Assembly: GCA_964364455.1 (NCBI GenBank)
Contig: CAYIMR010000002.1
Location: 35,911-82,219, forward strand
Direction of reading: 5' to 3'
Source: an uncultured Planctomycetales bacterium
Lineage (GTDB): Bacteria > Omnitrophota > Gorgyraeia > Zapsychrales > Zapsychraceae
DNA: 46,309 bases
Part shown: one piece after another, positions 2-33,294 of the stretch
Numbering within the stretch: the stretch's first letter is position 1
Layout of the letters: the number at the start of each line of letters is the position of its first letter
Made by a program: the position numbers and the translations under genes
Notes under the pieces: generated by a model
The model's input: the letters and a program-made list of their open reading frames with translations, nothing else
Told to the model about the DNA's origin: nothing
Databases searched by the model: none

Positions 2-2149
2 ATGAATTATCCGTTCCCGCCCTCCAACAGTTCCGGCCAAAATGGCTCTTCGCCGGTCCTGGAAAGCGTTGGCGCGCCTCGGATGACTACCGCGACATTC
101 GAGGAGGCCGATAAATTTTTGCGCGCCGCGCATGACGCGTTGGCCGGGAAAAAGGACTATTGGAGTCAAAAGATAGCTGCCAGCATCCGTGAGGCGTCGT
201 CTCCTGTCAGCGCCAGGAGTGATGATGCTGTGCCAGCCCTTGCCCAACGGGACACGCTTCCTGTCGCCGAGGCCATTGCCATTCAAGGCTACTCGGTTGT
301 CCCTGGCGTTGCCCCCGCCTCCAGCCCGGTGATGATGAAGACGTTCGAACGGATCGTTCAGGCGGTCAGAAGCGTTGATCGGCTGCCGGATGTGACGCGC
401 AGGACGTTCTTGCAATGGCTGGCTGCGGGAGTATTTGCCAGTGTTGTCGGTTGCGGCAAGGAAGATAAGGAGAATCCCGCGCCGCAGCCGCCGGTTTTGG
501 GTCTCATGGACACAGACGCGGGGCTAAACTGGTTGATTAATCGCATTGATCCCGCGACGAATCTGATCGCCAGTTTTGTAGATATTCCCGTTACGGATTC
601 TTCCTATGGCGTGACGTGGATTTTTAACCAAGCGCAGGCGATCGAAGCTTTTCTGGCGGCCGGTGATCTCGCGCGCGCCAGGCAATTGACCAAGCGGCTT
701 ATGGCACTGCAGGAATCCGGCGGGGCGTGGCGTAACGCTTATATCACCGCGACCGGGGCACCGTCGGCCAAAACGATTGAACATTCCCAGCGCTGGACGG
801 GGCCGAACGTGGCGGCCGGCGCCGTCATTCTGGAAGTAGCGGCCCTCACGCCTGAAGATCCATCTTATCTTGAATCCGCTCAACAGCTGGCCGGATGGCT
901 TGATCCTCTCTTTAATGATTTTGGTGATTTCGGATTTCTAAAAGGCGGCGATGAGGTCCCATGGGTCGCAACGGAACACAACATGCGCGCCATGCCTTAC
1001 TATGCGATGTTATTTGCCCAGACGGGGCTGGAAATCAATAACACGCGTTTGACGCAAACCAGCCGGTGGTTAAATGAGCGCATGTTCGCCGGCGATCATT
1101 ATGACGCAGGGCTTCTTTCCGTCAACCTAAACGATATCAACGGCGATTTCAATATAGCCACCGACATCCAGGCGATCGCCCCGATCATGGCCTTCCTCGC
1201 CGGGCTTGATCCTCTCAAATTCGCGGGCGGGCTGGACTGGCTTCTGGAATGGACAACACAAAGAGAGTATAACGGCACGACGTTGACGGGAATTCCGCGC
1301 TGGTTGACCTTGGGTTCATCGGTTTGGGCCGAAGGCACGTCGTATCTGGCCGCCGCGTTGATGCTTGTCGGGCGCGATCAGGAGGCCGTACCGTTTCTTA
1401 ACACGCTCGGGGCCATACAGGTTTCCGGCGGCGGGATTCTGGCGGCCATTGGAGAACCTTCCCAGGGCTGGCCCGGCGACTTCCGTTACTCCGCGGTGGA
1501 AGCGACCGCGCCGGCCATCGTGGCGACATTTGGCCTGCCGGAACATATTGCTGCCAAACCGTTACCCGCCAGCCCCGCCACCGGCGGGGCCAGCAGTCCG
1601 GTAACCGGCGATGATCAGGGGAAGGATGGTCCTTCCGCGTCGCGCAAGTTCGAACGGACGATCGGTCTGGCGCCGGGGGACAAGGCCTCCTCACCGGTCG
1701 TGGAAGGCAGGGGACAGGGTACAGGGTTCAGGGTTCAGGTGGCAGGTTTGAGGGGACAAGATGGAGAGCCCAGGCAATTTATCTGGGCATTGTGGTTCAA
1801 TCCGGATTATTACTGGCTGTGGGAGAAGATGCTGTTGAAACCGCACAAGAAAATCAGATGCTTGATCGTTCTCAACGTGCCGGAAGCCCTGAAGGAAGGG
1901 TCAATGATCAGGGTGCAGGGTACAGGGTACAGGGTACAGAGAAAAATTGCACGAACGACGAACGACGAGATACGAGCGACGAGTTCCCCGGTTGGCGCGG
2001 TGATTGTGGTTTCCTCTTCGCCGGTAGCTGATTGGAGTGACCCGGTCTGGGCGGCTTATCGGCTCAAGAAGGTGGAACAGGAGATGGCAAAAGCGAAAGG
2101 GGGCGATACCGGAGTTGTTTTTCATGTTTCCGGATCAGGTTCGAATTAA
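2..2149 (+). CDS. SSPV-motif protein, open at the 5' window edge; internal Tat/lipobox-like signal followed by an alpha/alpha-toroid-like domain; function unknown
   Basis: The ORF is uninterrupted from the window edge. Seven S-S-P-V motifs are encoded with varying Ser codons, which supports this frame. TRRTFLQWLAAGVFASVVGC (nt 395-454) resembles a Tat signal plus lipobox, so ATG 332 is a possible alternative start. The segment GLNWLI..AQAIEAFLAAGDLARARQL..GGAWRNAY has a helix-pair pattern typical of toroid folds. Heptamer DNA arrays at 1706-1761 and 1907-1983 are read through in frame. Confidence 0.55.
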   Translation: MNYPFPPSNSSGQNGSSPVLESVGAPRMTTATFEEADKFLRAAHDALAGKKDYWSQKIAASIREASSPVSARSDDAVPALAQRDTLPVAEAIAIQGYSVVPGVAPASSPVMMKTFERIVQAVRSVDRLPDVTRRTFLQWLAAGVFASVVGCGKEDKENPAPQPPVLGLMDTDAGLNWLINRIDPATNLIASFVDIPVTDSSYGVTWIFNQAQAIEAFLAAGDLARARQLTKRLMALQESGGAWRNAYITATGAPSAKTIEHSQRWTGPNVAAGAVILEVAALTPEDPSYLESAQQLAGWLDPLFNDFGDFGFLKGGDEVPWVATEHNMRAMPYYAMLFAQTGLEINNTRLTQTSRWLNERMFAGDHYDAGLLSVNLNDINGDFNIATDIQAIAPIMAFLAGLDPLKFAGGLDWLLEWTTQREYNGTTLTGIPRWLTLGSSVWAEGTSYLAAALMLVGRDQEAVPFLNTLGAIQVSGGGILAAIGEPSQGWPGDFRYSAVEATAPAIVATFGLPEHIAAKPLPASPATGGASSPVTGDDQGKDGPSASRKFERTIGLAPGDKASSPVVEGRGQGTGFRVQVAGLRGQDGEPRQFIWALWFNPDYYWLWEKMLLKPHKKIRCLIVLNVPEALKEGSMIRVQGTGYRVQRKIARTTNDEIRATSSPVGAVIVVSSSPVADWSDPVWAAYRLKKVEQEMAKAKGGDTGVVFHVSGSGSN
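1569..1596. repeat. family-C GC-rich hairpin element inside ORF1
   Basis: CCAGCCCCGCCACCGGCGGGGCCAGCAG, 27 of 28 identical to 21386-21413. Confidence 0.85.
1706..1761 (+). repeat. eight tandem degenerate heptamers (NNCAGGG) inside ORF1
   Basis: GGCAGGG GACAGGG TACAGGG TTCAGGG TTCAGGT GGCAGGT TTGAGGG GACAAGA. Confidence 0.85.
1907..1983 (+). repeat. two adjacent heptamer arrays (NNCAGGG x5, then ACGANNN x5) inside ORF1
   Basis: ATCAGGG TGCAGGG TACAGGG TACAGGG TACAGAG, then aaaaattgc, then ACGAACG ACGAACG ACGAGAT ACGAGCG ACGAG. Confidence 0.85.
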
Positions 2150-3748: not shown

Positions 3749-5590
3749 TTACTTGACCCTTAGAAATTGTTTGTCGAGGAAGTCTTCCGAAAGTTCTACG
3801 ACCGTCGGGCGTCCGTGCGGGCAAGTAAAAGGATCCAGGCACTGGATCAGTTCATCACGCATGTGCTCGGCCTGTTGGGGTTTCAAAACATCACCAGCCA
3901 TGACCGAGGAGCGGCAGGCGCGCCGGGCGAGCGCGTCGTGATCGCCGCGGCGCAGCGGGCCACCTCCCAGGATGTATCTTGCCGCTTTTTCAATATCCTT
4001 CAAGAACGTCGGATAACTGTGTACCGCGATCGTTTCCTTGTCCCAGAGGTTAGTGTCGAGGCCGATCGTATTGAATTGATCCCGCGCTTTCTCCCAGACG
4101 AGCATTTCCTGGGTGGAGAGTTTGAGCAAAACGGGGCTTAAAAGTCGCTGGACTTCGACATCGCCTTTATTCATCTGCCGGATGAGGCGTTCGTAGGTGA
4201 TCCGCTCGGCCGCGGCGTGTTGGTCGATAACAAGCATCGCGCGCCCCGCCTGGAACAGTTGATATTTGTTCAGTAAGGCCCCAATGTAAATCGCGCCGGA
4301 TAATTTGCTCTGAAGGTTTTCCTGGTGATTTAATTCGGGAACAAAGAAAGCCTGCTGTTCTCTCGTTGCCGTCACCGCAGGGTAAGCATAATCTCCGCCT
4401 TGGGCCGCCTCAAAAATTTCCGTTCCCGGCGCGGAATCGAACGTCACCTCCGACGGGTGCGCGCCCATGAGCGCCCGTTCAACGACATCTTCTCTGGTCC
4501 CTGGCCCCTGGCCTCTGGTCACTGCTTGCGTTTGTCCCGTTCCCAAAAGCGTCTCCTCGCACAGCCGCCGCAGGATCGAACAGATTTTTTGTTCATCCCT
4601 GATCTTGACCTCGCGTTTAGTCGGATGGATATTGACGTCGATCTCCTTCGCCGGGAGATGGAGGGAGACGACAAAAAGTGGATACAGGTCTTTGGGCATG
4701 ATGAGCCGGTATACCTGGTTGAGATGAAAGCTGATCGCTTTATTCTGCACCGGCCGGCCGTTGACGAAGATAAACTGCATGTCCCGGCGGGCGCGTTTGA
4801 TGTTGATATCACCGAGGATCAAATCGACACGTAGGGACAGGCCTAGGCCTGTCCCTACGGCCAAAAGATGTTTTTCATCGACGTGCAGGACGTGCGCCAC
4901 GCGGCTTTTCGCGTCTGAACAAGGCGCGGCATCGACCAGATCCCTGCCTTCATGGGTTAATTGAAACCGCACGTTATGATGAAGCAGGGCATAGGGGATA
5001 AAGGTGTTGAGGATCTGATGGATCTCGGTTGTATCGGATTTGAGGAATTTCCGCCGGGCAGGGGTGTTGAAGAATAGTCCCTTGACCTCGATCTCGGTTC
5101 CGTGCCCGGGCATGGCGCAGGGACGCAGATCGAGCCTTTTACCACCGCGTATATGAATTTGCCACCCCGCCAAAGGCGGGGTGCCCCCGCGCCTGGTTTC
5201 ACCGAAGGTGGAACCAGCGGGGGCTTCTTTACTGCGCAACGTCACATCCGCGATGGCGCCGATGGAATAAAGGGCCTCGCCGCGAAAGCCCAGGGACTGA
5301 ATGTCATAGAGGTCATCGGCTTTTTCAATTTTGCTGGTCGCGTGGCGTGAGAAAATTTTTTCCAGATCGTCGCGTTCGATACCGTGGCCGTTGTCTTTGA
5401 TCTTGATCAGTGTTTTGCCGGCTTCCCGCAGGGAAACTTCGATCGTGTCCGCGCCGCCCGCCTGCCGGCGAGGCAGGGCATCGAGGGCGTTCTCAACGAG
5501 CTCCTTGATGACGGAGGCGGGCCGCTCGATGACCTCGCCCGCGGCGATCTTGCTGATGACTTCTTCTTTCAGGATGTGGACGGTAGACAT
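3749..5590 (-). CDS. mutL: DNA mismatch repair protein MutL (endonuclease type)
   Basis: The N-terminus KIAAGEVIERPASVIKELVENALDA is the GHKL ATPase signature. Other motifs present are FNTPARRKF, DQHAAAERITYE and CPHGRPT. It carries several GC-rich palindromic in-frame segments. Confidence 0.95.
   Translation of the reverse strand: MSTVHILKEEVISKIAAGEVIERPASVIKELVENALDALPRRQAGGADTIEVSLREAGKTLIKIKDNGHGIERDDLEKIFSRHATSKIEKADDLYDIQSLGFRGEALYSIGAIADVTLRSKEAPAGSTFGETRRGGTPPLAGWQIHIRGGKRLDLRPCAMPGHGTEIEVKGLFFNTPARRKFLKSDTTEIHQILNTFIPYALLHHNVRFQLTHEGRDLVDAAPCSDAKSRVAHVLHVDEKHLLAVGTGLGLSLRVDLILGDINIKRARRDMQFIFVNGRPVQNKAISFHLNQVYRLIMPKDLYPLFVVSLHLPAKEIDVNIHPTKREVKIRDEQKICSILRRLCEETLLGTGQTQAVTRGQGPGTREDVVERALMGAHPSEVTFDSAPGTEIFEAAQGGDYAYPAVTATREQQAFFVPELNHQENLQSKLSGAIYIGALLNKYQLFQAGRAMLVIDQHAAAERITYERLIRQMNKGDVEVQRLLSPVLLKLSTQEMLVWEKARDQFNTIGLDTNLWDKETIAVHSYPTFLKDIEKAARYILGGGPLRRGDHDALARRACRSSVMAGDVLKPQQAEHMRDELIQCLDPFTCPHGRPTVVELSEDFLDKQFLRVK
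4831..4860. repeat. family-A GC-rich palindrome in frame inside mutL
   Basis: GTAGGGACAGGCCTAGGCCTGTCCCTAC is a perfect 28-nt palindrome. The 28 nt at 4833-4860 are identical to 10004-10031. It is translated as VGTGLGLSLR. Confidence 0.9.
5163..5224. repeat. two adjacent GC-rich hairpins in frame inside mutL
   Basis: CACCCCGCC-AAA-GGCGGGGTG (5163-5183), then the imperfect GCCCCCGCGCCTGGTTTCACC-GAA-GGTGGAACCAGCGGGGGC (5183-5224). Together they encode ..APAGSTFGETRRGGTPPLAGW... Confidence 0.7.
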
Positions 5591-5672: not shown

Positions 5673-8278
5673 TCAAGGATTTCTTTCAATTCCCCTAATT
5701 TATTCATCGCCTCCAACGGCGTCATGGTATCAATGTCCATCGCCCGGATCGTTTCTTTGATGGTTTCCGCCATTGGGTCGACGGGCATGTGGAACATATC
5801 CAGTTGTTTTTCCGGCGCCTGTTCGCCTTTAAGATTTTCTTTCAAGTCATTTTTCAATTCTAATTGCGTCAATATGTGTTTGGCGCGGCCGATGATCGCC
5901 TTGGGGATGCCGGCCAATTTAGCGACGTAGATGCCGTAGCTGTCATCGGTCGAGCCGGGGATGATCTTGTGCAGGAAAATGACCTCATCTTTCCATTCTT
6001 TGACCGCGACGTTATAGTTTTTTGCGCCGGAGGCGCACCCGCCTTTGGCGGATACATTTCTGTCCGCAAGCGCCGTTAACTCATGGAAGTGGGTCGCGAA
6101 AAGCGTTCGCGTTTTGGTCGTTTGCAAATGTTCGGCGATCGCCCAGGCGAGGCTTAATCCGTCGTAGGTGCTCGTTCCCCGGCCGATCTCATCAAGGATG
6201 ATGAGGCTGCGGTTGGTCATGTTGTTGAGGATATCCGCCGTTTCGTTCATCTCGACCATAAAAGTGCTTTGGCCTTTGTTGATATCATCGTGCGCGCCGA
6301 TGCGCGTGAAAATTTTGTCGACGATCCCGATATGGGCGGAGGAGGCCGGGATAAAACTTCCCATCTGGGCCATGATGGTCAGGATGGCGGTTTGCCGGAT
6401 ATAGGTGGATTTCCCGGACATGTTCGGTCCGGTCAGGACGATCAGATGATTTTCTTCGCCATCGAGCAGGGTATCATTGGGCACAAAAGGACCGGCGAGT
6501 ATTTTTTCAACGACCGGGTGGCGGCCGTCTTTGATCTCCAGCAACGTATCATCGGCGATTCCCGGGGCAATGTAGCCCGGCGATTGGGCCAGCACGCGCA
6601 GGGAGTAGAGGGTATCGAGTGTGGCGATGTTTTGGCAAAATTGATGAAGCCGCGCCGAATGCGCCAGGACCTCCTGCTGGATTTCCTGCACGAGCGCGTT
6701 CTCGATCTTGGAGATCTTTTCTTCGGCGGTAAGGATCTTTTCTTCATATTCTTTGAGCGCGGGCGTGATGTATCGTTCGCCGTTAACGAGCGTTTGTTTG
6801 CGGATATAATCCTGTGGCGCAAGATGCTGGTTCGCCTTGGTGATCTCGATGTAGTATCCGAAAACCTGGTTGAACCCGACTTTAAGCGAATTGATCCCCG
6901 TGCGTTCGATCTCGTTTTCCTGGAATTTTTTAAGCCACTGCCGTCCGTTTTCTTGGATATCACGCAAGCTATCAAGTTCAGCGTGATATCCAACGCGGAT
7001 GATCTTTCCTTCGGGATGGGCGAGAGGGATCGTTTCATTGACGGCGCGGTCCAAATATTGGCGCAGGTCAGGGATGTCTTCGCAATCAAACAGGGAATTC
7101 CGGGACATGACGGGGTTGACCGCGTTCTGGATTGCGGGCAAAAGCGCTAACGTATTGCGGATCGCCAAAAGGTCTTTGGCGTGGGTGTAACCGCAACTTA
7201 ACCGTGAGATGTTTTTTTCAAGGTCTGGAATTTTATCGAGAAGATCTTTCAACTGCCGGCAGACTTCAGGATGGGCGCTTAACAGCCGGATAGCATCCTG
7301 GCGTTCGATAATATCCGGCACGTTTTTCAAGGGATGCGTCAGCCAGAACCGGAACATCCGCCGGCCCAGCGGCGTCAAAGTATGATCGAGCGTTTCGATG
7401 AGCGTGTCTAATTCCAGGCCGCGCGCGGCCGCCGGGGAGATAAAGACATAATCGTCGTCGTTGTACAGGGCGATACGGTCGATGTGTCTGAGCGGCTGTT
7501 TGTTCATCTCCCGCAGATATTCCAACAGCGCGCCGGCGCTTGAGGTGGCGCTGGTGAGTTCTTCGATGCCAAATCCATGAAGGTTGTGGACGGCAAAATG
7601 TTCGCACAGTGTTTTTCTGGCGATATCCTGGTTGAAGGACCATTCTCCGTACGGGCTTAAGGCGATATTTTTCGCGCGTAAAAGCGGATGTTCAAAAATA
7701 GGTTTGATTTTCGCTTCGGGTTCTTCCCCCTGCGGGTAAACGCATTCACAAATGGGGAGCTTGGCGATGAGTTCCGCCAGCCGCCCGTATCCCAGGGGAT
7801 ACTGGTTCGTTTGAATGGTCCCGCTGGTCGGATCGGTGAACGCAACTCCGATATTCTTTTCGTTGGGGCTTAAACACAACAGATACCGCGCGTCGCTGTT
7901 GTGCTCATCGAGATAGGTGCCGGCGGTGATGACGCGGATGACGTCGCGCCGGACAATGCCCTTGGCGAGCGCGGGCCGCCCATGGCGAGCCTCGCCTTCG
8001 GCGGGGTCTTCCATCTGTTCGCAAATGGCGACTTTGTAGCCGGATCTGATGATCCTGGCGATGTAATTGTCGGCGGCGTGCCAGGGCACCCCGCACATGG
8101 GGATCTTGTTCGAAGAACCTTTGCCGCGGGAGGTCAAAACGAGATCAAGCGTCCTGGATGCCAGCTTGGCATCATCATAAAACATCTCATAGAAATCGCC
8201 GAGGCGAAATAAGAGGATGCAGTCTTTGTGCTTCTCTTTTATAGAGCGGTACTGCGCGAGCATGGGGGTTTCGGACAT
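5660..8278 (-). CDS. mutS: DNA mismatch repair protein MutS
   Basis: MLAQYRSIKEKHKDCILLFRLGDFYEMFYDDA at the N-terminus, Walker A GPNMSGKSTYIRQ, STFMVEM and DEIGRGTSTYDG. Confidence 0.97.
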   Translation of the reverse strand: MSETPMLAQYRSIKEKHKDCILLFRLGDFYEMFYDDAKLASRTLDLVLTSRGKGSSNKIPMCGVPWHAADNYIARIIRSGYKVAICEQMEDPAEGEARHGRPALAKGIVRRDVIRVITAGTYLDEHNSDARYLLCLSPNEKNIGVAFTDPTSGTIQTNQYPLGYGRLAELIAKLPICECVYPQGEEPEAKIKPIFEHPLLRAKNIALSPYGEWSFNQDIARKTLCEHFAVHNLHGFGIEELTSATSSAGALLEYLREMNKQPLRHIDRIALYNDDDYVFISPAAARGLELDTLIETLDHTLTPLGRRMFRFWLTHPLKNVPDIIERQDAIRLLSAHPEVCRQLKDLLDKIPDLEKNISRLSCGYTHAKDLLAIRNTLALLPAIQNAVNPVMSRNSLFDCEDIPDLRQYLDRAVNETIPLAHPEGKIIRVGYHAELDSLRDIQENGRQWLKKFQENEIERTGINSLKVGFNQVFGYYIEITKANQHLAPQDYIRKQTLVNGERYITPALKEYEEKILTAEEKISKIENALVQEIQQEVLAHSARLHQFCQNIATLDTLYSLRVLAQSPGYIAPGIADDTLLEIKDGRHPVVEKILAGPFVPNDTLLDGEENHLIVLTGPNMSGKSTYIRQTAILTIMAQMGSFIPASSAHIGIVDKIFTRIGAHDDINKGQSTFMVEMNETADILNNMTNRSLIILDEIGRGTSTYDGLSLAWAIAEHLQTTKTRTLFATHFHELTALADRNVSAKGGCASGAKNYNVAVKEWKDEVIFLHKIIPGSTDDSYGIYVAKLAGIPKAIIGRAKHILTQLELKNDLKENLKGEQAPEKQLDMFHMPVDPMAETIKETIRAMDIDTMTPLEAMNKLGELKEILEDRR
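6023..6051. repeat. two small GC-rich hairpins in frame inside mutS
   Basis: TGCGCC-GGA-GGCGCA (6023-6037) and CCGCC-TTT-GGCGG (6039-6051). They encode the AKGGCASGA segment. Confidence 0.6.
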
Positions 8279-8385
8279 GGGGGATATATGCTCTGATTCA
8301 ACGATAACCGATTGATGGGCTGAATTCTATCATAAATCTCAAATAAGTGGAACAGAAAATTGGCAAGCTATGCTATACTTTTACT

Positions 8386-8826
8386 GTGGGCAATGCGCAT
8401 CGAACAAAACGGGCGTCCGGCTTCACCATGATCGAGCTTATGACCGTGGTCGTCGTCATCGGCATTTTGGCCGCTATCGCGTTCCCGAGCTACCGGATCC
8501 AGATGAGCAAAATGAGGAATCAGGAAGCGATCCGCGCGCTTATGGCCGTCTGGGACGCGCAGAAAGATTATTACCGGACCAATGGCGCCTATGCGGCGAT
8601 TATGGGGGATCTCGACGTCGAGTTTCCTTCGGGGTTGAAACATTTTAGCGGGCCGAATGTCATCGCCGGCGCTCCGGGTTCATGCGGCGGCCCCCCCACG
8701 CCGGTCCTGGCGACGGCGGTATCTCTGACGGAAGTGTATACCCTCTCGGCTTTGGACGACGGCCGCGTTGTTTGCTCTCCCTGCGGTGACGCGCGGTGCA
8801 CAAAGATGGGATTCCCCGGCTGGTGA
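8386..8826 (+). CDS. type IV pilin-like protein (prepilin N-terminal cleavage/methylation domain)
   Basis: G/FTMIELMTVVVVIGILAAIAFPSY is the class III signal and N-terminal helix. The track ORF starts at GTG 8347. GTG 8386 would give a 12-aa leader (MGNAHRTKRASG), which is more typical. Confidence 0.8.
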   Translation: MGNAHRTKRASGFTMIELMTVVVVIGILAAIAFPSYRIQMSKMRNQEAIRALMAVWDAQKDYYRTNGAYAAIMGDLDVEFPSGLKHFSGPNVIAGAPGSCGGPPTPVLATAVSLTEVYTLSALDDGRVVCSPCGDARCTKMGFPGW

Positions 8827-9760: not shown

Positions 9761-10729
9761 CTGATTGTTTATCTGGACGCCCGGATGCTGCGCCGGCTAT
9801 GCCGGCGCAGCCGTCGCGATGGGCGTTTGTTCAATGACGTATTTGCCGTTTCCCCGGTTTTAACCGTTATTATCGCGGGGTTAATTTTATTTCATCTTTT
9901 TGTCGTTGAGAACTCTCCGCAAAACCTGCCACAATTCCTTTTTGTCGCTTTGTTGCCGATCTACCTTTTGCGCCGGATACGTTTTCTAAAATCCGTTGGT
10001 GGCAGGGACAGGCCTAGGCCTGTCCCTACGGAGACCGAAACCCTGGTTTCCGACGCGTATAACGTCATCCTGATCTGGTTTCTGGCCATGGTCGTCACCG
10101 GCGCTTTTTTCAAAAGCGCTGGTGAAATATTCCCGGTATTTGAATCCCGAATGGGACAACTGCTTCTGTCCGCGGTTTTTTCCTCGGCCATCGCGCTTGT
10201 CCTGATCGCCAGGGCGTCACAAAAATTTTCTGATCAAGGATTTCTTTACAATGCCGGATTGCGTAAAGGCGAGAAATCCGTCATGGAGGTGTTCGTTGTC
10301 CCGGCGCTGGTCGGGGTGTTTTTTGCCGTCGTTTCTTCAGCGATCATCTGGCTGCGCCACGTGCAGCCGGTGACGCCTTTAAGCGCGGTCGTTGCCGCGA
10401 CGGATTCGGTTTGGTTGTTCGCGATATTTTTGGCCATGGCGATCCTGGTGGCGCCTTTGATCGAAGAGATCATCTTCCGGGGATATTTTTTCCACGTCAT
10501 CCACCGGGCCAAAGGCGAGCGGTCCGCCATTTATGTTATTTCCCTGGTGTTCGCTTTTCTTCACGTCGGGCAATATTGGGGGGACTGGCCCGCGATTGTG
10601 ATGGTCATGCTGCTGGGCTTTGCCTTGGCGATTTTACGGGCCCGGACGGGAACGACGCTGGCGAGTATCATTGCCCATTACGCATATAACGCCGGAGTGA
10701 CCATTATTCCATTCTATATGGTCAAATAG
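9731..10729 (+). CDS. CPBP-family intramembrane glutamic endopeptidase (CAAX protease-like)
   Basis: EEIIFRG, FAFLH and HYAYN motifs in a polytopic membrane protein. ATG 9734 is the likely start. It contains a palindromic insert at 10004-10031. Confidence 0.85.
   Translation: MMAIVLLGLALIVYLDARMLRRLCRRSRRDGRLFNDVFAVSPVLTVIIAGLILFHLFVVENSPQNLPQFLFVALLPIYLLRRIRFLKSVGGRDRPRPVPTETETLVSDAYNVILIWFLAMVVTGAFFKSAGEIFPVFESRMGQLLLSAVFSSAIALVLIARASQKFSDQGFLYNAGLRKGEKSVMEVFVVPALVGVFFAVVSSAIIWLRHVQPVTPLSAVVAATDSVWLFAIFLAMAILVAPLIEEIIFRGYFFHVIHRAKGERSAIYVISLVFAFLHVGQYWGDWPAIVMVMLLGFALAILRARTGTTLASIIAHYAYNAGVTIIPFYMVK
10004..10031. repeat. family-A GC-rich palindrome in frame inside the CPBP protease gene
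   Basis: AGGGACAGGCCTAGGCCTGTCCCTACGG, translated as RDRPRPVPT in a loop between TM segments. Confidence 0.9.
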
Positions 10730-10878: not shown

Positions 10879-11112
10879 ATGAAGAACATTTACCTCCTCA
10901 AAGACCTCGCCAAGCTCAGCGGGCATTCGACGCACACCCTGAAATATTATCTGCGGCTCGGGCTTTTCAGGGAGATTGGCCGTTCCCCAGCGACGAATTT
11001 CCGTTATTTTGATGATTCCTCCTGCGAACAATTAAAGAGGATACGCCGGCTCCAGAAGGAAAAATATTCCTTGAAAGAGATCTGCGAGCGGCTGGGCAAG
11101 AATGATGATTAG
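10879..11112 (+). CDS. minimal MerR-family transcriptional regulator
   Basis: MKNIYLLKDLAKLSGHSTHTLKYYLRLGL is a MerR HTH followed by a short coiled coil. The track start at 10852 lies inside the repeat array, so ATG 10879 is preferred. Confidence 0.85.
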   Translation: MKNIYLLKDLAKLSGHSTHTLKYYLRLGLFREIGRSPATNFRYFDDSSCEQLKRIRRLQKEKYSLKEICERLGKNDD

Positions 11113-12598
11113 AAAATGTATTTTTATTTTGATGATGGCCATTTGGGCCGCGGGTGGGACCCCTACGGGCCGCGCGCGGGCGCAATCTTTGAACGCGGTT
11201 TCAAACAGCGTCTCACAGCCGGATGGCCCTGAAACGACGACGTCCGCTGAAGTGACTGCCGCGAAAGTCGTTAAAACAACACTCGACACACTGGATGTCC
11301 AGGAAATGGACATTAAAGAGGTCCTCAAGAGAATAGCTTTTCAAAGCGGCCTTGAGATCATTTTAGACGAAGATATCAGCGCGCGGGTGACGATCTATTT
11401 GAAGGACGTCGATGTTTTTGACGCTTTGCGGATCATCCTGGATACCAATAACCTGGCTTACAGCCAGGATCCTGGAGAGACAGAAGGCAGGCAGGCCGCG
11501 GCCGTGCATGTGATGACGGCCCGGAATTTCGAGGGCCGCTTCGGTTATCCGTTCAGCCAGAAGATCCAAACGAAGATCATCCCGCTTTCCCACGCGCGGC
11601 CTGAGAAGGTAAGCGCGCTTTTGGACAAGATGAAAGGCGCGGCCGGCAAGGTCATTTACAGCGAGGGCACCAGATCGTTTATTCTCATCGACGCTGCGCA
11701 ACAGCTCACGTCCATGAGCGATCTTGTCCGGGAGATGGACGTTCCCGTGGAATCCAAAACGTTTGATCTGCGTCACGTAAAAGCCAGGGACATGGCCCCG
11801 CGTATCCAGGAATTCTTGACCAGGAACGTCGGGAGGGTCGAATTCGGCGAACGCGAAACGGCCTTGACCATCGATGACACGCCGGCGCGGCTCGTGGAGA
11901 TCGGTAAACGTATTGAAGAGCTCGACAAACCCGCCAAGGAGGTTTTTCTTGATGTCAAGATCCTTCAGATCATCCTGAACGACGAAAACCGCCAGGGAGT
12001 TGACTGGGAGGCGATCGTTTCCGATTATCAGAGTTTTCCTTTCACGGGTTTTGAGGGAAAAGGGGCCGGCATTCTAAGCGTTGGAACTGTTTCGGAAGAA
12101 GATTATGTCGTGCTCCTGGATGCCTTGGACACCGTCGGCATGCTTAATACGGTATCGAATTTGAAAATGACGGCGGGTGCCGCGGGGCGTAATGAAATTT
12201 TGATCCGGGGCAAGGACTTGCTGGCGGATTTTGAGCCGCAGGAACCGCAGGAGGGGTTGACGGGCAAAACGGAAGTGCTTTATGGTGTTGGTTCCAGGCT
12301 GGGAGATGACGCGCAGATCATGTTGGAGATCCAGCCACAGGTGCTGGGTGAGTCTGTCCCGCTCCGCGGGACCTACTCGGCCGGTGAGAAAAAAGGCCTA
12401 ACGCTCAAACTTCAGGAAGGCACCACGGTTGTCGTCGGCGGGCTGTTCAAGAGCGTTCATGTTGAGGCAACACGCAAGATCCCCTTACTCGGCGATCTGC
12501 CGTTATTGGGGTTCGCGTTCCGGCTGCAGGGACAACGCCTGCGGGAAACGGAGATCATCGTCTTTTTAACGCCGAAGGTGGTTGTGAAAGAAAAGTAA
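11102..12598 (+). CDS. secretin (short PilQ/GspD-family outer-membrane channel)
   Basis: A signal peptide is present. The N-domain reads DVQEMDIKEVLKRIAFQSGLEIILDEDI. The C-terminal secretin domain reads GTTVVVGGLF..KIPLLGDLPLLGFAFR..TEIIVFLTPKVV. It overlaps the merR stop by 11 nt. Confidence 0.85.
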   Translation: MMIRKCIFILMMAIWAAGGTPTGRARAQSLNAVSNSVSQPDGPETTTSAEVTAAKVVKTTLDTLDVQEMDIKEVLKRIAFQSGLEIILDEDISARVTIYLKDVDVFDALRIILDTNNLAYSQDPGETEGRQAAAVHVMTARNFEGRFGYPFSQKIQTKIIPLSHARPEKVSALLDKMKGAAGKVIYSEGTRSFILIDAAQQLTSMSDLVREMDVPVESKTFDLRHVKARDMAPRIQEFLTRNVGRVEFGERETALTIDDTPARLVEIGKRIEELDKPAKEVFLDVKILQIILNDENRQGVDWEAIVSDYQSFPFTGFEGKGAGILSVGTVSEEDYVVLLDALDTVGMLNTVSNLKMTAGAAGRNEILIRGKDLLADFEPQEPQEGLTGKTEVLYGVGSRLGDDAQIMLEIQPQVLGESVPLRGTYSAGEKKGLTLKLQEGTTVVVGGLFKSVHVEATRKIPLLGDLPLLGFAFRLQGQRLRETEIIVFLTPKVVVKEK

Positions 12599-12726
12599 GA
12601 AGTAAAGAGTGAGAAGTAAGAAGAGTAAAGAAAAAAGGTGGATAATGTAAAACTGAGGTAATCAGGCAGGCAAAATCCAAACCGGCGTTATTTTTTTTAC
12701 TTCTTACTTCCTTCTTCTTACTTCTA
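12594..12726. repeat. heptamer-word inverted array (AGTAAGA words) with a ~65-nt loop
   Basis: AGTAAGAAGTAAAGAGTGAGAAGTAAGAAGAGTAAAG pairs with TTTACTTCTTACTTCCTTCTTCTTACTTCTA. Confidence 0.75.
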
Positions 12727-12735
12727 ACTTTTACC

Positions 12736-13854
12736 GTGTATATGCTTCGAAATCATTTTTCAATTTGGCTGCTTATCTTGTCCCTCGCGCTGTTCGCCAG
12801 CGGCTGCGCGACAGTCCCCGGTGGGCGGATGACGGATTCCTCCCCGCGGCCAAAGGCTCCCCGCGGGGAGGGAGCCTTTGGCCGCAAGCGGATCTACCTT
12901 AAGGACCTGTGCGACCGGTATTCGCTCGCTTGGCAATGGGACCATATTTCCCAGACGGTGGACCTGAAAATAGACGGCATCAATGTCCGTCTTCTGGTCG
13001 GTAGCAGCGTCTTGTTGCTGGGCAAGGAGCAGGTCAGGCTGAACACTCCGGTTTTGATCGACCAGAGTTCGGTGATGCTGCCCTATGATTTCAAGGCAAA
13101 GGTGATGGACAGATTCCCAGATTTATTTACCGCGAAGGCGCCATCACGATCGCGGGTCACGCGGGTCCCGCGCGTGTTCCGCAAGCTCCGGGAAGTGGTC
13201 ATCGATGCCGGTCACGGCGGCAAAGATCCCGGCGCCATCGGCGTCACAGGCATGAAGGAAAAGACGGTCGTTCTTGATGTTGCCCAGCGGCTAAAAAAGT
13301 TACTGGAGGCCGCGGGGGTCAAGGTGACGATGACCCGCAAAGACGATACGTTCATTTCCCTGCAGGAGCGTACCGAGATCGCCAGCCGATCCAAGGCGGA
13401 TCTGTTTATCAGCATCCACGCGAACGCGAGCTCCGCGCGCAGCGTCCACGGCGTGGAGGCGTATTGTTTGAAGGATTTAGGGACACTTGAGAAAAATGAG
13501 GCCCAGCGCCAGTCGAACCATAAATTGATGTTCAAAAATCTGGCCATGAAAAAAGGTTCTTTGAACCTTGAGGATATCGTTGAGGATATGCTTTATACGC
13601 ACAAGCAGAGCGTTTCTCCAACACTGACGGCAAAACTTGCGGGCCGGGTGGCCCAGACGGCCAAGGCGAATGATCGGGGCGATAAGCAGTCGCGTTTTTT
13701 TGTCCTGCGCAACACGTTGATCCCGGCGGTGTTGGTGGAGATCGGTTTCGTGACCAATCCTAAAGAGGGGCGGTTACTGAAGACCGGCGATTACCGGCAG
13801 AGAATCGCCGAGGGACTGGCGAACGGGATTTTGGGATACAGGGATGGGAAATAA
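12736..13854 (+). CDS. N-acetylmuramoyl-L-alanine amidase (Amidase_3), lipoprotein
   Basis: Lipobox LFASGC, VVIDAGHGGKDPGAIG and DLFISIHANAS. It contains a 39-nt palindromic insert at 12847-12885. Confidence 0.9.
   Translation: MYMLRNHFSIWLLILSLALFASGCATVPGGRMTDSSPRPKAPRGEGAFGRKRIYLKDLCDRYSLAWQWDHISQTVDLKIDGINVRLLVGSSVLLLGKEQVRLNTPVLIDQSSVMLPYDFKAKVMDRFPDLFTAKAPSRSRVTRVPRVFRKLREVVIDAGHGGKDPGAIGVTGMKEKTVVLDVAQRLKKLLEAAGVKVTMTRKDDTFISLQERTEIASRSKADLFISIHANASSARSVHGVEAYCLKDLGTLEKNEAQRQSNHKLMFKNLAMKKGSLNLEDIVEDMLYTHKQSVSPTLTAKLAGRVAQTAKANDRGDKQSRFFVLRNTLIPAVLVEIGFVTNPKEGRLLKTGDYRQRIAEGLANGILGYRDGK
12847..12885. repeat. family-B 39-nt hairpin element in frame inside the amidase gene
   Basis: CGGCCAAAGGCTCCCCGCGGGGAGGGAGCCTTTGGCCGC with a 14-bp stem. 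Translated as RPKAPRGEGAFGR. Confidence 0.9.
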
Positions 13855-14698
13855 CAATCCAATAGGTGTTTTCGATTCCGGCTTGGGCGGGTTGACCGTG
13901 GTCAAGGAATTGATCCGGCAGCTGCCGCAAGAGAGCATCGTTTACTACGGCGATACCGCGCGCGTGCCTTACGGAACCAAGTCCAGGGAATCCATCATCC
14001 GCTTTTCCCATGAGAACACGCGGATCCTTTTAGAACGTGGCGTCAAAATGGTCGTTGTGGCGTGTAACACTTCTTCGAGTTACGCGCTTGTCCAATTGCG
14101 CAAGCATTTTCATTTACCGATCGTGGGCGTTATCGATCCCGGCGCGCGCAAGGCCGCGGAGGTGACGCGTAACCGAAAAGTGGGGGTCATCGCCACGCCG
14201 GCGACGGTCAACAGCCGTTCCTACGCCAAGGCCATTTTCCGTTACGACCGCGCGATTCAAGTGTCCAGCCAGGCGTGTCCTTTGTTCGTTCCATTGGTGG
14301 AGGAAGGCTGGCTGCGCAACCCCGTGACCACGGCCGTGGCCCGCGAATATTTGAAACCTTTACAAAAGACTGGTGTTGACACGCTGGTCTTGGGATGCAC
14401 GCATTATCCGTTGCTGAAAAGCGTTCTCAAAGACGTGATGGGAGCGAAGGTGGCCCTGATCGATTCCGCCACGGAGGTTGCCGCCGAGGTCAAACGTGTC
14501 TTGCAGGACAGACAACTATTGCGCCCGTCCGCCGTTAGGCTCCCTTCGGCCAAAGGCTCCCCGCGGGGAGGGAGCCTTTGGCCGCGGGGAGGAGGAAGAC
14601 GGGCGCAATACAGCTTTTTGATCAGCGACCGGCCGCAACAGTTCGAAAAAACGGCCAGGGAGTTTTTGGGGTACAATATCCGGGCGGTAAAAATCTAA
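13844..14698 (+). CDS. murI: glutamate racemase
   Basis: IGVFDSGLGGLTV, VVACNTSS and LGCTHYPLL. It contains the same 39-nt palindrome at 14547-14585. Confidence 0.93.
   Translation: MGNNNPIGVFDSGLGGLTVVKELIRQLPQESIVYYGDTARVPYGTKSRESIIRFSHENTRILLERGVKMVVVACNTSSSYALVQLRKHFHLPIVGVIDPGARKAAEVTRNRKVGVIATPATVNSRSYAKAIFRYDRAIQVSSQACPLFVPLVEEGWLRNPVTTAVAREYLKPLQKTGVDTLVLGCTHYPLLKSVLKDVMGAKVALIDSATEVAAEVKRVLQDRQLLRPSAVRLPSAKGSPRGGSLWPRGGGRRAQYSFLISDRPQQFEKTAREFLGYNIRAVKI
14547..14585. repeat. family-B 39-nt hairpin element in frame inside murI
   Basis: Identical 39 nt on the same strand, but read in a different frame as SAKGSPRGGSLWPR. Confidence 0.9.
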
Positions 14699-14704
14699 AT
14701 TGTT

Positions 14705-14772
14705 ACGTCGCTCGTCGTCCGTATCTCGTATTTCGTTACGAGATACGAGATACGAGCGACGAAATACGAAAT
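14705..14772. repeat. heptamer-word hairpin (ACGANNN words) between murI and queD
   Basis: Hand pairing of 14705-14736 with 14738-14772 gives about 25 bp with 1-2 mismatches or wobbles. Confidence 0.85.
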
Positions 14773-18656: not shown

Positions 18657-21600
18657 TTAAAAGATTCCCTTCAATATCGTCCCAATCCCCTCCTTCAACC
18701 CATCCTTGAGGATATCCGTCGTTTTTTCCAGGATATTGAAGGGAAGGGTCTGGACTTTGTACTGCGGATTGCGCAGGGTTCCGGTGAGCTTTATGGAAAC
18801 ATAATCTCCCTGGGACAGCAAAAGCGAAGGGATCTTTTTAAGCGACCTGGATTCGGCGGCGACCAGTTCCCCGAAGGTCGGCGCGATGTCGAAGTTGATG
18901 TTCCCCTCAAGGTTGATCCATCCTTGTCCTTTAAGACTGATGCTGCTGCTGTTCATCGTGGCGTCAGCGGTCGTGATCTTCCCGTCGGCCATGGTAAAAT
19001 TTGCCTGCCCGTCGGTAAAGACGACGTCCTTGAATTCCGGGATGAGCAGCACATCCGGAAGACCATCCAGGATGTTCCAGCGAAAAAGATGTCCTTTTGT
19101 GACGGACAACGAGCCGTCGCCTTTCCAGCGCGTTGGGTTTTGGGGATCACCGCTTAGATTAACCAGCGCGGAAAGACGTCCGGCCAGGAATTCGTTCTTC
19201 GGCAGGTTACTCTCTCGTAAAACGGCCAGGTCCATGCCTTCCAGTGATCCGGTCAACCGCGCGATGGGCTCATCCTGCGCCAGGTCCATCGAAGAAATGA
19301 GGTTGAGGTTGCCGTTATAGGCGCGGCCCGTGAGGTTGCACTTGCTGATGTGCCGGTCGCGCTGCGCGTATTCGATGGCCCCGTCATCGAGGTGAAACCT
19401 GTTGAGGGATACCGTCGGCGCGCGGGCGGTAAACGTCAGGTCCCAGTCCTGCCAGTTTTTCGGCCTTCCTTTAAACAGGCCTTCACCGGAGAACGTGCCG
19501 ACGGGCTGGAGTTTCACGAGACGGTCTTTAAGCGCGGACGGGAAGGCGCTTAAGTCCTCGAGGCTCAAGGTGAACGTTCCGCGGATGTCCATATCCGGCT
19601 CGTTTCCTTCCAGCAGGTGCACGTCGCCCCTGATGTCCAGCGAGCTGTTGAAATATTTTCCCGTCAGGAAAATAATTTGAAAGGCCTGGTTGAGGATCTT
19701 GAATTGGGCTGAGGCGTTGAGATCTCGCGAGGCCACCTGGAGGTCCACGACCGGCCGCGAAAAATCAGCGAACTGGCCGTTGAGGGTGTATTGGTTTTTT
19801 TGGTAAAGGCCCTGGAGATTTTTCCAGACGACCAGATCTTTTTGATAGGCGATCTCACCGGAAATATTCGTGATATCCCCTGAAATTTTTGGGCTGGCGA
19901 TCGCCGCGTTTTGGAATTTGGCGTTGAACCGGACGTCCGCGGCGGCGGGGTTCTGGACGTCTCCGATGTAAGAGGCCGCGGCGGCGGCCGTTCCGGCAGG
20001 GGCGATGTTCGTTTTTTCCGTCAGAACCGGAAAGGCCGTGAACAGTTTTTGCAGGTCAAGGTTGTCGGTTTTCGCCCGGACGTTCAAAACGGGCCTGGAA
20101 AAGTTGATCAAGGATCCGGAGAGCAGGATATCGGTTCCCTGCGTCTGAAAAGTGAACTGGCCGCTGGCAAGCCGGTTGGTCTCGATCTGGACCGTCCCGC
20201 GTATTTTCTCAACCGACCGGAGGTATGGGACATTTTTGAGGACCGCGTCGGTAAAATGCAATTCGCCGAAGTAGAGGTATTTATTGTCCTGGCCGTTGGG
20301 GTCGTATTGACAGGTCAAGTTCCCGTCGGGGTGCCCTTCCAGGGCGATCTGCGGCGTCAATTGCAGATGAGCATTCTTGAAATCCAGGTCTGACTTGACC
20401 TCGCAACCGTCTTGTTCACAGACCAATAAGGTCTGTGAACTTTTGAAGTCCGCCTGCAGGTATCTATCCGGGCCCCAATCCATACGCGCGCCGGATAATT
20501 GCAGGTCGCTTAAGATGCCGAGCTTTCCTTTGTCGAACGCGAACTTTGTTTTTTGCGTCGTCAGATCCCCGCGCAGTTTATAGTCAACGGAAAACGCCGC
20601 ATCCATCTCGTTGATGTTCAGGGCCGCTTCCAGGCGGATGCCACGCTCATCGTTACGCATGACAAAGTTGTCGGCCCGCAAGGCATGTGCGCGGATACCT
20701 TTGTTTTCCCCCGTGACCACGCGCGTTTCTTCCAGGATGAGGCTGCCATGGGCGGACATTCCCTGGGGAGCAATATCCAGCGATTTTATCTCGGCGCTTA
20801 TCTTGCCATTGACCGAACGTCCTTGCGCGAACGTGATAAAAGTTGAGTCAGATTCCAGATGCCCGCTGGCCGTCCAGCGCCCGTCCTGGCGGGTCAGGGA
20901 AACGCCGGTTGCCCGCGCCGAAGTGACGATCCTTTTCTCCCCCGCAAGCTCCACGTCCATCTTGTCGATGGTCACGCCGCCCTGGGCCTGCAGCCCGTCG
21001 CGTTCCCAATTCAGGTTCAAATCCAGCGCGGTGACGATACCGTCTTGAAAATGGATATCCTGCGGCAGGGGAATAAGGGACAAATATTGGGCCAGCGCGA
21101 TACGCTCCGCCATGACGCGGGTGGAAAGCTTGCGCGATTCGAGGTAATAATTCCCTTTGATGTTGATGGTGGCCTCCCTGCGAGGGATTTTACCTCCCAG
21201 GGTAAAGCGGACGATCTTGTTGAGCGAGAACCGGGCGTCGAGCTCGATGCCGCTGATGACCTCATGAAAATTTTCCGGTACGGTCCGGTCGGTGTAGGCG
21301 ATCTCACCGTCTTTGACGATGATTTTGCGCGGGGCGATGATCCAGGAGCTTTTGGTTTTGCCGGAGGTTGAAGATTTGTGGTCCTCCAGCCCCGCCAACG
21401 GCGGGGCCAGCAGATCGGAGAAATTCCATCGGGTCGTTTCTTCACGCGTGATCTGCGCGAACGGGCCGCTCACGCGTATCGACGGGATCAGGATGATCTT
21501 TTTCTGGAATACCGGCGCCAGCAGAACATGGAAGGTGACCTCATCGGCCTGCAGAAAGACGCGCGCGGGATCGTCTTTCTGGTAGACGGTCAAGTTACGC

Positions 21601-21794
21601 ACGACAAATCCACTCAAGGGGCTGAAGTGGATTTTATCGATGGTAACATTGCGGTGGAGATATTCCCGCGCCCGGGCGATGACGAAGCGCTTGAACTGCA
21701 CGGGTAAAAAGATGTTCTGAATATAGAAATAAAGAAAATAGGAGAGGATAAAGATCGTCAGGAGAGCATAAACAGTCTTGCGCGTCCAGTGCAT
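18657..21794 (-). CDS. AsmA-family (AsmA/TamB-like) envelope protein
   Basis: One N-terminal TM helix (YALLTIFILSYFLYFYI) is followed by about 1000 aa of beta-rich repetitive sequence typical of AsmA-like proteins. ATG 21794 (MHWTRKT) is preferred over the TTG at 21878. Confidence 0.7.
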   Translation of the reverse strand: MHWTRKTVYALLTIFILSYFLYFYIQNIFLPVQFKRFVIARAREYLHRNVTIDKIHFSPLSGFVVRNLTVYQKDDPARVFLQADEVTFHVLLAPVFQKKIILIPSIRVSGPFAQITREETTRWNFSDLLAPPLAGLEDHKSSTSGKTKSSWIIAPRKIIVKDGEIAYTDRTVPENFHEVISGIELDARFSLNKIVRFTLGGKIPRREATINIKGNYYLESRKLSTRVMAERIALAQYLSLIPLPQDIHFQDGIVTALDLNLNWERDGLQAQGGVTIDKMDVELAGEKRIVTSARATGVSLTRQDGRWTASGHLESDSTFITFAQGRSVNGKISAEIKSLDIAPQGMSAHGSLILEETRVVTGENKGIRAHALRADNFVMRNDERGIRLEAALNINEMDAAFSVDYKLRGDLTTQKTKFAFDKGKLGILSDLQLSGARMDWGPDRYLQADFKSSQTLLVCEQDGCEVKSDLDFKNAHLQLTPQIALEGHPDGNLTCQYDPNGQDNKYLYFGELHFTDAVLKNVPYLRSVEKIRGTVQIETNRLASGQFTFQTQGTDILLSGSLINFSRPVLNVRAKTDNLDLQKLFTAFPVLTEKTNIAPAGTAAAAASYIGDVQNPAAADVRFNAKFQNAAIASPKISGDITNISGEIAYQKDLVVWKNLQGLYQKNQYTLNGQFADFSRPVVDLQVASRDLNASAQFKILNQAFQIIFLTGKYFNSSLDIRGDVHLLEGNEPDMDIRGTFTLSLEDLSAFPSALKDRLVKLQPVGTFSGEGLFKGRPKNWQDWDLTFTARAPTVSLNRFHLDDGAIEYAQRDRHISKCNLTGRAYNGNLNLISSMDLAQDEPIARLTGSLEGMDLAVLRESNLPKNEFLAGRLSALVNLSGDPQNPTRWKGDGSLSVTKGHLFRWNILDGLPDVLLIPEFKDVVFTDGQANFTMADGKITTADATMNSSSISLKGQGWINLEGNINFDIAPTFGELVAAESRSLKKIPSLLLSQGDYVSIKLTGTLRNPQYKVQTLPFNILEKTTDILKDGLKEGIGTILKGIF
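21386..21413. repeat. family-C GC-rich hairpin element inside the AsmA-like gene
   Basis: CCAGCCCCGCCAACGGCGGGGCCAGCAG, read from the opposite strand as LLAPPLAGL. Confidence 0.85.
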
Positions 21795-33269: not shown

Positions 33270-33294
33270 CAAGTATGCAATGCAGGAGGAAACT

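Follow-up and report, generated by a model that had tools for sequence, protein, structure and literature searches.

A 21-nt CCAG-flanked hairpin repeat within genes of an Omnitrophota genome and its relatives in other bacterial phyla

Why should two genes of one bacterial contig, read from opposite strands, hold nearly the same short GC-rich hairpin? The question is raised by a 46,309-nt stretch of an Omnitrophota contig from a groundwater (Hainich) metagenome, hereafter called the window, in which open reading frame 1 (ORF1) and a gene for an AsmA-like protein each carry one copy of a CCAG-flanked hairpin (Table 1). The orthologues of the window AsmA and MutL proteins carry Omnitrophica/Omnitrophota annotation, and the same MutS protein as in the window is specified by an 84.8-kb ENA contig and by four others. 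Both copies belong to a sequence family that is spread across phyla, makes precise insertions of 21 nt (seven residues) with CCAG at their junctions, is patchily present among orthologues and has a patterned loop. They are probably very small, non-autonomous palindromic mobile elements that resemble repetitive extragenic palindromic (REP) sequences, and their mobilization would be of the HUH/Y1 type.

Two copies of one hairpin

The two copies are identical at 27 of 28 bases, and their sole mismatch (C at 1581, A at 21398) is the middle base of a 3-nt loop. A previous sequence-only reading had described such a pair, with one base difference in the loop and with opposite reading directions relative to the coding strand (PASPATGGAS in ORF1, LLAPPLAGL in the AsmA-like gene), and its coordinates, the degree of identity and the frames were all verified. 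The location of the variable base in the loop is true of this pair but not peculiar to it, as the loops of 72 copies follow a purine-any base-pyrimidine (RNY) pattern with a free middle base. The repeat unit is not the 28-mer that had been put forward, but a 21-nt insertion, composed of a 17-nt hairpin and one CCAG, beside a pre-existing CCAG.

Both copies have an 8-bp stem made entirely of GC pairs (GCCCCGCC/GGCGGGGC), which in copy 1 joins 1572-1579 to 1583-1590 around the loop at 1580-1582. The predicted folding energy of copy 1 is -11.7 kcal/mol for the DNA hairpin and -20.8 kcal/mol for the RNA hairpin, and the hairpins of the element reach -21 to -23 kcal/mol as RNA, with z about -3.3. 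In ORF1 the element lies at residues 524-531 and its sense reading is gcc agc ccc gcc acc ggc ggg gcc agc (A S P A T G G A S). In the AsmA-like gene, copy 2 appears on the gene strand as CTGG-CCCCGCC-GTT-GGCGGGG-CTGG and is read as ctg gcc ccg ccg ttg gcg ggg ctg (L A P P L A G L, then E); it occupies residues 129-135, in a length-variable loop that directly follows the conserved WNFSDL motif. Neither window copy is an intrinsic terminator, as there is no T run and both lie mid-gene, and a scan of the window against Rfam yielded no family at gathering score.

Could such a pair arise from chance, base composition or faulty assembly? The motif is GC-rich and hairpin-like, and single matches do turn up in genomes of 63-74% GC (Bradyrhizobium, Cupriavidus, Polymorphospora and a Hyphomicrobiales metagenome-assembled genome, MAG), where about 1-5 per 100 Gb would be expected. 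For the window copies, however, this explanation is refuted. Markov models of order 1, 3 and 5 predict 0.005 occurrences of the core CCCCGCC-N3-GGCGGGG in the window, which in fact has three, so that the test proposed beforehand as a means of refutation does not reduce the motif to composition. No match to the repeat appeared in 100 dinucleotide shuffles of the window, and perfect hairpins with stems of at least 9 bp number nine where about one is expected. A covariance model, trained on 71 copies from outside the window only, recovered copy 1 at 47.2 bits and copy 2 at 46.4 bits (E about 2e-9). Copy 1 was also recovered in an independent Hainich assembly (contig L001), and the AsmA-gene copy both in L202 and in L200, a Logan assembly of a different sample. 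In addition, orthologous copies with different loops are found in other species, and the expectation in genomes of 41-52% GC is negligible.

Precise insertions in a family shared by several phyla

At the AsmA site, 23 orthologues, ranging from 98% to 40% identity, align cleanly around WNFSDL. The element peptide is found in the window, P0001, P0035, P0003 and P0014/15; the other 17 aligned orthologues, including P0002, lack it. The filled allele reads GAT CTG CTG G-CC CCG CCG TTG GCG GGG CTG G-AG; without the element the window site would be expected to read ...CTGCTGG^AGGAC..., and four empty alleles are listed in Table 1. The two forms of the site differ in length by exactly 21 nt, CTGG standing once in the empty form and twice in the filled one. 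The net gain, a 17-nt hairpin plus the second CTGG/CCAG, therefore adds exactly seven codons to the gene. On a neighbour-joining tree of AsmA the carriers are not one clade: P0014/15 are distant from the others, and P0002, which has no element, is not separated from the carriers P0003 and window/P0001. This lack of monophyly implies repeated gains or precise losses, and the turnover of copies is rapid in evolutionary terms.

Among close strains the loop codon of the AsmA copy is L, S or T and that of the ORF1 copy is T or I, while the arms stay perfect. In L076, the loop at the AsmA site is AAC, the reverse complement of the GTT of the window. A homologue search for an empty ORF1 allele returned only the 90% cluster of ORF1 itself, in which all four members covering the site are filled; the empty site would be expected to read ...CCCGCCAG^CAGTCC.... 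The same quantum is seen in another Omnitrophota genome (L060), whose DNA polymerase I (Pol I), aligned with that of Bacillus, shows a single gap in 281 residues, the 7-residue APPKAGL. In L055, two copies stand in tandem with a common middle CCAG and a period of 21. The cysteinyl-tRNA synthetase (CysRS) of L052 and the ThiE protein of L075 were compared with PDB entries as further cases of a 7-residue gap, and no clean gap was obtained because the element falls in length-variable regions.

Further members were sought with the pattern CCAGCCCCGCCNNNGGCGGGGCCAG (CCAG-CCCCGCC-NNN-GGCGGGG-CCAG) in one genome per species from 185,579 species. The scan retrieved 70 loci from Acidobacteriota, Omnitrophota and Patescibacteria, these names being taken from the titles of the genome records alone; the flanks of the loci are unrelated and their loops vary. 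Acidobacteriota MAGs supply most of them (about 18 in DATEUS01 and about 10 in JBOGNW01), Omnitrophota have seven loci in five MAGs, and the others come from Falkowbacteria or Patescibacteria (41-51% GC), from Planctomycetales and, as a few single matches, from high-GC genomes. Base composition predicts about 5e-5 copies per genome at 65% GC and about 1e-6 or fewer per genome at 52% GC or below, and one Acidiferrales MAG alone holds about 18 loci against about 5e-5 expected. Because these expectations are so low, the multi-copy and low-GC cases are not due to chance, while the single matches in high-GC genomes may be. In viral contigs, which served as a control, the bare core was flanked by CCAG at 0 of 130 sites and was usually terminator-like, with TTTT after it. 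Additional bare cores in the element-bearing genomes had at least three of four matching flank bases in 6 of 14 cases, against 13% in the viral control (p = 0.006; a post hoc comparison on a small sample), a suggestive sign that 4-nt direct repeats may surround the bare core more generally in these genomes. One locus, L029:3970-4044, contains a 67-nt hairpin with the termini and flanks of the family (CCAG-CCCCGC...GCGGGG-CCAG); apparently intergenic, between a TPR gene and ispE, it may be a larger relative.

The consensus of the family is (G)CCAG-CCCCGCC-RNY-GGCGGGG-CCAG(C). Over 72 distinct copies, G is found at position -1 in 71% and C at position +1 in 83%, so that the direct repeat tends to GCCAGC. 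The first loop base is a purine in 61 copies and the third a pyrimidine in 62, and the second is free. The outer bases do not combine at will: G..C occurs 19 times, G..T 17 times, A..C 17 times and A..T never (Fisher p = 3e-4). Such a pattern would fit a founder with CCG-N-CGG at its centre, that is, a 17-nt perfect odd palindrome, with at most one C-to-T change per copy, on either strand of the exposed loop.

The element has several properties that suit it to coding sequences. Its length is a multiple of three, five of the six frames contain no stop, and in the sixth stops are kept out by the RNY loop; the heptapeptides that it encodes are rich in Pro, Ala and Gly, and the copies that survive are located in linkers and in loops at the protein surface. 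Genes tolerate it because it leaves the frame intact, brings in almost no stops and lands in loops. Of 16 copies in low-GC genomes, 15 fall inside ORFs of 194-1074 codons; the hosts include CysRS, Pol I, a BioD-BioA fusion, a hydrogenase-like large subunit, a secretin, the signal-peptide region of a TolC-like protein and the linker of a sigma-54 regulator, and L075 has three copies within one 241-residue ThiE gene. Relative to the mRNA, 34 copies are sense and 39 antisense, and all six frames are used. The commonest frame gives LAPPxAGL (24/73); this preference, considered as a sign of peptide selection, is largely explained by CTG-G being the commonest coding context of CTGG, at 40% of the sites in window genes.

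The frames also bear on the idea that a peptide motif has been selected, or that gene conversion took place between ORF1 and the AsmA-like gene. Each of the two peptides is a linker rich in Pro, Ala and Gly, and the similarity of the window copies runs a few bases past the element (32/36). Yet the copies are read from opposite strands and in different frames, which yields unrelated peptides, the same DNA is found in all six frames elsewhere, and CAGCAGATC, the right flank of the AsmA copy, is ancestral coding sequence (FSDLL), shared with the empty alleles. The opposite-strand reading and the six-frame distribution effectively refute this explanation, to which we give hardly any credit.

Possible modes of spread

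As a REP-like mobile element, the hairpin would be mobilized in single-stranded form and inserted next to a CCAG tetranucleotide, each insertion consisting of the 17-nt GC hairpin and a second copy of the CCAG of the target. By analogy with known systems, the mobilizer would be a trans-acting enzyme of the HUH/Y1 kind, RAYT (REP-associated tyrosine transposase) or IS200-IS605-like, which was not found here. The element itself would have no host function, and its loop would decay quickly by C-to-T changes while the arms stay complementary. The 25-mer is a quasi-palindrome with an internal CA/CA mismatch, G-T/T-G on the opposite strand, and this asymmetry could let a protein tell the strands apart. 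In RNA made from the CTGG strand, the stem extends via G-U pairs.

Several results weigh against mobilization of this kind. There is no transposase in the window, and a tblastn search with an IS200 TnpA query, a weak test, revealed no Y1 transposase in about 600 kb of loci that bear the element; its best match (L029, E 0.65) was not significant and falls in the gene of a TPR protein. Orientation relative to the local GC skew shows no bias (29 vs 43, p = 0.12), an uninformative comparison, since over 8-kb loci the skew is set mainly by the direction of the genes. None of 2.9 million viral contigs has the full motif, and no vector between phyla was thus found among them. The uniform distribution of the middle loop base is odd for the descendants of one master copy. 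The copy of L078 is flanked by TTGG...CCAA, which is inverted rather than direct, and the direct CCAG repeat is therefore not universal. Finally, perfect arms and CCAG flanks were demanded of all 70 external loci by the search pattern, so that the conservation of the arms and the uniformity of the flanks are in part products of the search, and the numbers of loci are those of strict-pattern matches rather than full copy numbers per genome.

Part of these data would also be accounted for by templated insertion without any dedicated enzyme, a less likely possibility that nevertheless deserves consideration. A nascent end with CCAG would anneal to the CCAG beside another copy, copy the hairpin and the next CCAG, and return; the hairpin would promote stalling and switching, and the product would be a 21-nt insertion with direct CCAG repeats. 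This view agrees with the tendency of the direct repeat to GCCAGC at both junctions, with the failure to find a transposase, with the reverse-complementary loops of L076 and the window at the same site, and with the L078 copy, in which the right flank has been turned into the complement of the left to give a 27-nt perfect palindrome. The lineage also clearly makes hairpins by template switching, as shown by an inverted duplication in the mutS gene of L205 (see below). However, templated insertion leaves unexplained why the same 22 specified bases are found in Acidobacteriota, Omnitrophota and Patescibacteria, as nothing would conserve the arms across phyla without a sequence-specific partner, and ectopic switching over long distances on 4-6 nt of microhomology is expected to be rare.

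Alternatively, the hairpin might be kept by the host as a DNA or mRNA structure, such as a translational pause between domains, an mRNA stabilizer or a site for a protein or a nuclease, and not be selfish at all. It is very stable as RNA, its arms remain perfect while the loops of strains change, its stem can be extended by G-U pairs on the CTGG strand, and a different palindrome, at 4830-4859 in mutL, shows a compensatory change in L205. On the other hand, the element is missing from 17 of 23 AsmA and 109 of 119 MutL orthologues, the genes that carry it have unrelated functions, it is found in either orientation to the mRNA, its frames are distributed roughly as CCAG and CTGG are placed in coding frames, and it matches no Rfam family. 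Selection by the host appears improbable in view of these results.

Opitutus, of the Verrucomicrobia, and Omnitrophota are usually placed in the PVC group. This name is given to Planctomycetes, Verrucomicrobia and Chlamydiales in a survey that reports REPs with GTAG or CGTC tags inside the genes of repair proteins, Pol I and aminoacyl-tRNA synthetases, the intragenic GTAG REPs being most numerous in Opitutus terrae (PMC3733652). Like REPs, the elements described here are short GC-rich stem-loops (stems of 5-13 bp in REPs, 7-8 bp here) with a conserved unpaired tetranucleotide at the foot, they are dispersed (70 loci) and patchy among species and strains, and some REPs are likewise intragenic and in frame, the comparable hosts here being mutL, Pol I and CysRS (Di Nocera et al. 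2013, PMC3733652; Bertels & Rainey 2011, PMC3116915). They differ in that REPs have GTAG or CGTC at one end, whereas CCAG stands at both ends here, as a direct repeat; in that REPs exceed this unit in size, which has 17 + 4 nt and keeps strictly to a length of 21 nt; in that REPs are mainly extragenic and these copies mainly intragenic; and in that identical arms are found across phyla. Neither REP dimers (REPINs) nor a flanking RAYT gene were seen in the window or the element-bearing loci. The family is thus of the REP kind, but CCAG-tagged at both ends, phased at 21 nt, mainly intragenic and common to several phyla; it was not filed as REP because it has no GTAG or CGTC tag and is not mainly extragenic, and because no RAYT was found in the window or the loci searched. 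No description of it was found in the Omnitrophota literature searched.

Other small repeats offer partial parallels. The small dispersed repeats SDR4-6 of cyanobacteria, which Elhai et al. are said to have described in 2008, are reportedly hairpins of 21-27 nt with a precise short target. Compared by description, they share with the CCAG element the size class, the hairpin, the dispersal, the precise insertion at a short target (here CCAG) and host genomes rich in heptanucleotide tandem repeats, as in the window, but they belong to other phyla and apparently have another sequence, and the coding habit and the 21-nt quantum are stronger here. The Rickettsia palindromic elements, attributed to Ogata et al. 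in 2000, are reportedly inserted in frame in genes of Rickettsia and its relatives and measure about 100-150 bp (30-50 residues). They too are palindromic repeats that add a peptide at tolerated positions, whereas the element studied here has 21 nt (7 residues) and occurs in several phyla. With IS200/IS605 elements and palindrome-associated transposable elements (PATEs) it shares a hairpin to be recognized and insertion beside a tetranucleotide that is also needed at the element end, and the imperfect hairpins by which TnpA distinguishes strands in IS200/IS605 have their counterpart in the CA/CA mismatch of the 12-bp quasi-palindrome. The resemblance is in mechanism only, as there is one hairpin in place of left and right ends, no TnpA was found and no strand bias was seen. 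Miniature inverted-repeat transposable elements are comparable in that the 7-8 nt arms act as inverted termini and that CCAG is present once at empty and twice at filled sites, but they typically measure 50-500 bp and derive from a parent insertion sequence, while the element has 17 + 4 nt and no parent was found.

If the REP-like reading is right, a mobile DNA can measure no more than seven codons and reside mainly within genes, a niche ignored by repeat finders and annotators, and it would be a source of many short lineage-specific loop insertions in the proteins of uncultured bacteria with small genomes. The filled and empty alleles would then serve as strain markers between genomes that are 96% identical, and the identical arms in distant phyla would point to a horizontally shared hairpin-processing activity. 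A wider proposition is offered as a tentative one that is more doubtful than the REP-like reading itself: the 21-nt CCAG hairpins may be a class of codon-phased mobile DNA that is about the smallest described, with arms common to three phyla, a sister family CCTGCC...GGCAGG and an enzyme that recognizes hairpins, and may constitute a major ongoing source of loop insertions, also in mismatch-repair genes, in groundwater bacteria with small genomes.

Hairpins of the mismatch-repair genes and other repeats of the window

Table 1. Positions of the CCAG elements, their host genes and related or neighbouring hairpins, with empty AsmA alleles
Feature	Position	Strand	Description
Copy 1	1569-1596	+	CCAGCCCCGCCACCGGCGGGGCCAGCAG; in ORF1
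Copy 1, layout	1569-1572; 1573-1589; 1590-1593	+	CCAG; 17-nt hairpin CCCCGCC-ACC-GGCGGGG; CCAG
Copy 2	21386-21413		CCAGCCCCGCCAACGGCGGGGCCAGCAG; inside minus-strand AsmA-like gene; chromosomal orientation same as copy 1
Copy 2, layout	21386-21389; 21390-21406; 21407-21410	+	CCAG; hairpin CCCCGCC-AAC-GGCGGGG; CCAG
Host gene 1, ORF1	2..2149	+	C-terminal part of a source-contig ORF with a called length of 11,306 aa
Host gene 2, AsmA-like	18657..21794	-	AsmA/DUF748/YhdP-family protein; 1045 aa counted from ATG
Empty AsmA allele, L079			GAT CTG CTG G^AC
Empty AsmA allele, L203			GAT CTG CTG G^AA
Empty AsmA allele, L201			CTG TTG G^AA
Empty AsmA allele, L077			GAT CTG G^CA
mutL hairpin	5163-5183	-	21-nt perfect hairpin CACCCCGCC-TTT-GGCGGGGTG on gene strand (AAA loop on +)
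mutS hairpin	6039-6051		CCGCC-AAA-GGCGG on +, CCGCC-TTT-GGCGG on gene strand
gltD hairpin	45974-46000	+	11-bp stem, CCCGCCAAATT-GAATA-AATTTGGCGGG; overlaps stop codon
mutS in-frame hairpin insertion	approx. 7976-8005		30 nt; absent from L204, L205
mutS in-frame hairpin insertion	approx. 6029-6054		24 nt; absent from L204, L205
mutL in-frame hairpin insertion	approx. 5457-5477	-	21 nt; absent from L204, L205
mutL insertion block with hairpin 5163-5183	listed approx. 5186-5231		42 nt; absent from L205 only
L200 sister hairpin	L200:600-635 vs window 21330-21345		CCTGCCTG-TCCGG-CAGGCAGG

Hairpins in mutL, mutS and at the end of gltD had been named as relatives of the two copies. All three exist, but they differ in their claim to kinship. 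The mutL hairpin has the core of the family and encodes (G)TPPLAG(W), but its flanks are CA/TG instead of CCAG and the covariance model matches it only at the borderline (5159-5186, 18.7 bits, E 0.02). The mutS hairpin scores as noise (E above 2), and that of gltD, at the 3' end of the gene and followed by a second hairpin at 46005-46025, has a different sequence and no covariance match. Neither of these two is a member of the family, and nothing supports kinship of the gltD hairpin.

The mutL hairpin belongs to a block of 14 additional residues (42 nt) that is missing from most orthologues, and the corresponding residues 136-142 (GTPPLAG) are all occupied in 8 of 119 orthologues, with L, S or K as the loop codon. 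Relative to Aquifex MutL, the window protein shows two 7-residue gaps. A 21-nt unit with a stem of 9 and a loop of 3 recurs in mutL and at position 484 of L055. The mutS hairpin is located inside the window-specific insertion at about 6029-6054 of the minus strand, where a second small hairpin, TGCGCC-TCC-GGCGCA, is formed with the bases just downstream and where the alignment with E. coli MutS has an 8-residue gap.

The insertions of mutS and mutL in Table 1 were defined by comparison of the window with L204 (88.9% identical) and L205 (87.1%) over mutS-mutL. That at 5457-5477 of mutL is a 21-nt hairpin, CCTGCCTCGCCGGCAGGCGGG, related in sequence to the sister hairpin of L200, which encodes LPRRQAG and interrupts the ENALDAGA ATPase motif of MutL, between D-A and G-A; it is absent from all 119 other orthologues, one of them 91% identical. 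The 26 nt that span it are found unchanged in the AsmA variable loop of L079. In an AlphaFold model of MutL (predicted template modelling score, pTM, 0.82), both inserted segments are low-confidence coil between regular secondary structure. To judge from the sequence, the LPRRQAG insertion might impair mismatch repair, and together with the other insertions of mutS and mutL it may influence how fast these populations mutate. The 30-nt mutS insertion contains a decayed CCCCGCC-GAA-GGCGAGG.

The mutS gene of L205 has an insertion of its own (820-850), 21 nt built from its flank, which results in a 28-nt perfect palindrome made of CCTCTGGAATACGA followed by TCGTATTCCAGAGG; by its layout, it is a signature of template switching (inverted duplication). 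The AsmA gene of L200, with 96.4% DNA identity to that of the window, differs from it by a single indel, a 21-nt hairpin (CCTGCCTGTCCGGCAGGCAGG) just before CTGG, and 21-nt GCCTGCC-TACCGCA-GGCAGGC copies of this sister family recur in the acidobacterial loci that hold the main family. Another palindrome of mutL, at 4830-4859, is perfect over 30 nt (CGTAGGGACAGGCCTAGGCCTGTCCCTACG), and its 24-nt core has a copy in an Rce1-like gene at 10004-10027; in L205 it is kept with a different centre and with compensatory T>C and A>G changes in its arms.

The window also has repeats of other kinds. A complex palindrome of 46-47 nt (CTCCCCGCGGCCAAAGGCTCCCCGCGGGGAGGGAGCCTTTGGCCGC) is present at 12838-12893 and 14540-14593, with 96% identity, within two adjacent genes, those of the amidase and the Asp/Glu racemase. 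Heptanucleotide tandem repeats (AAGTAAG, ACGAGAT, CAGGGTA, GGTGACA and others) occupy most intergenic regions, for instance 12593-12734, 14703-14771, 18595-18656, 44417-44523 and 46089-46118, and are also found inside ORF1 (1708-1739, 1909-1939 and 1951-1983). Often arranged as inverted arrays that could form long intergenic hairpins, they are reminiscent of the short tandemly repeated repetitive (STRR) sequences of cyanobacteria. The tail of ORF1 contains the peptide motif SSPV seven times; as the codons differ, this is a protein-level motif.

The last 105 nt or so of the NAD synthase gene (31370-31478) are duplicated at 32838-32946 with 87-88% identity, on the other side of an AAA/DUF4143 ATPase gene (31531-32703) that looks to have arrived with a replacement 3' end. 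The region 32000-40000 has a GC content of 41-45%, against 51-56% elsewhere, and carries ArsR, permease and FtsX/ABC transporter genes together with ORFs without Pfam matches; it may be an acquired island. Lastly, 8347-8826 and 11102-12598 hold a pilin with an N-terminal methylation motif and a weak match to ComP, the receptor of DNA uptake sequences, near a secretin gene, a set that may represent DNA-uptake machinery.

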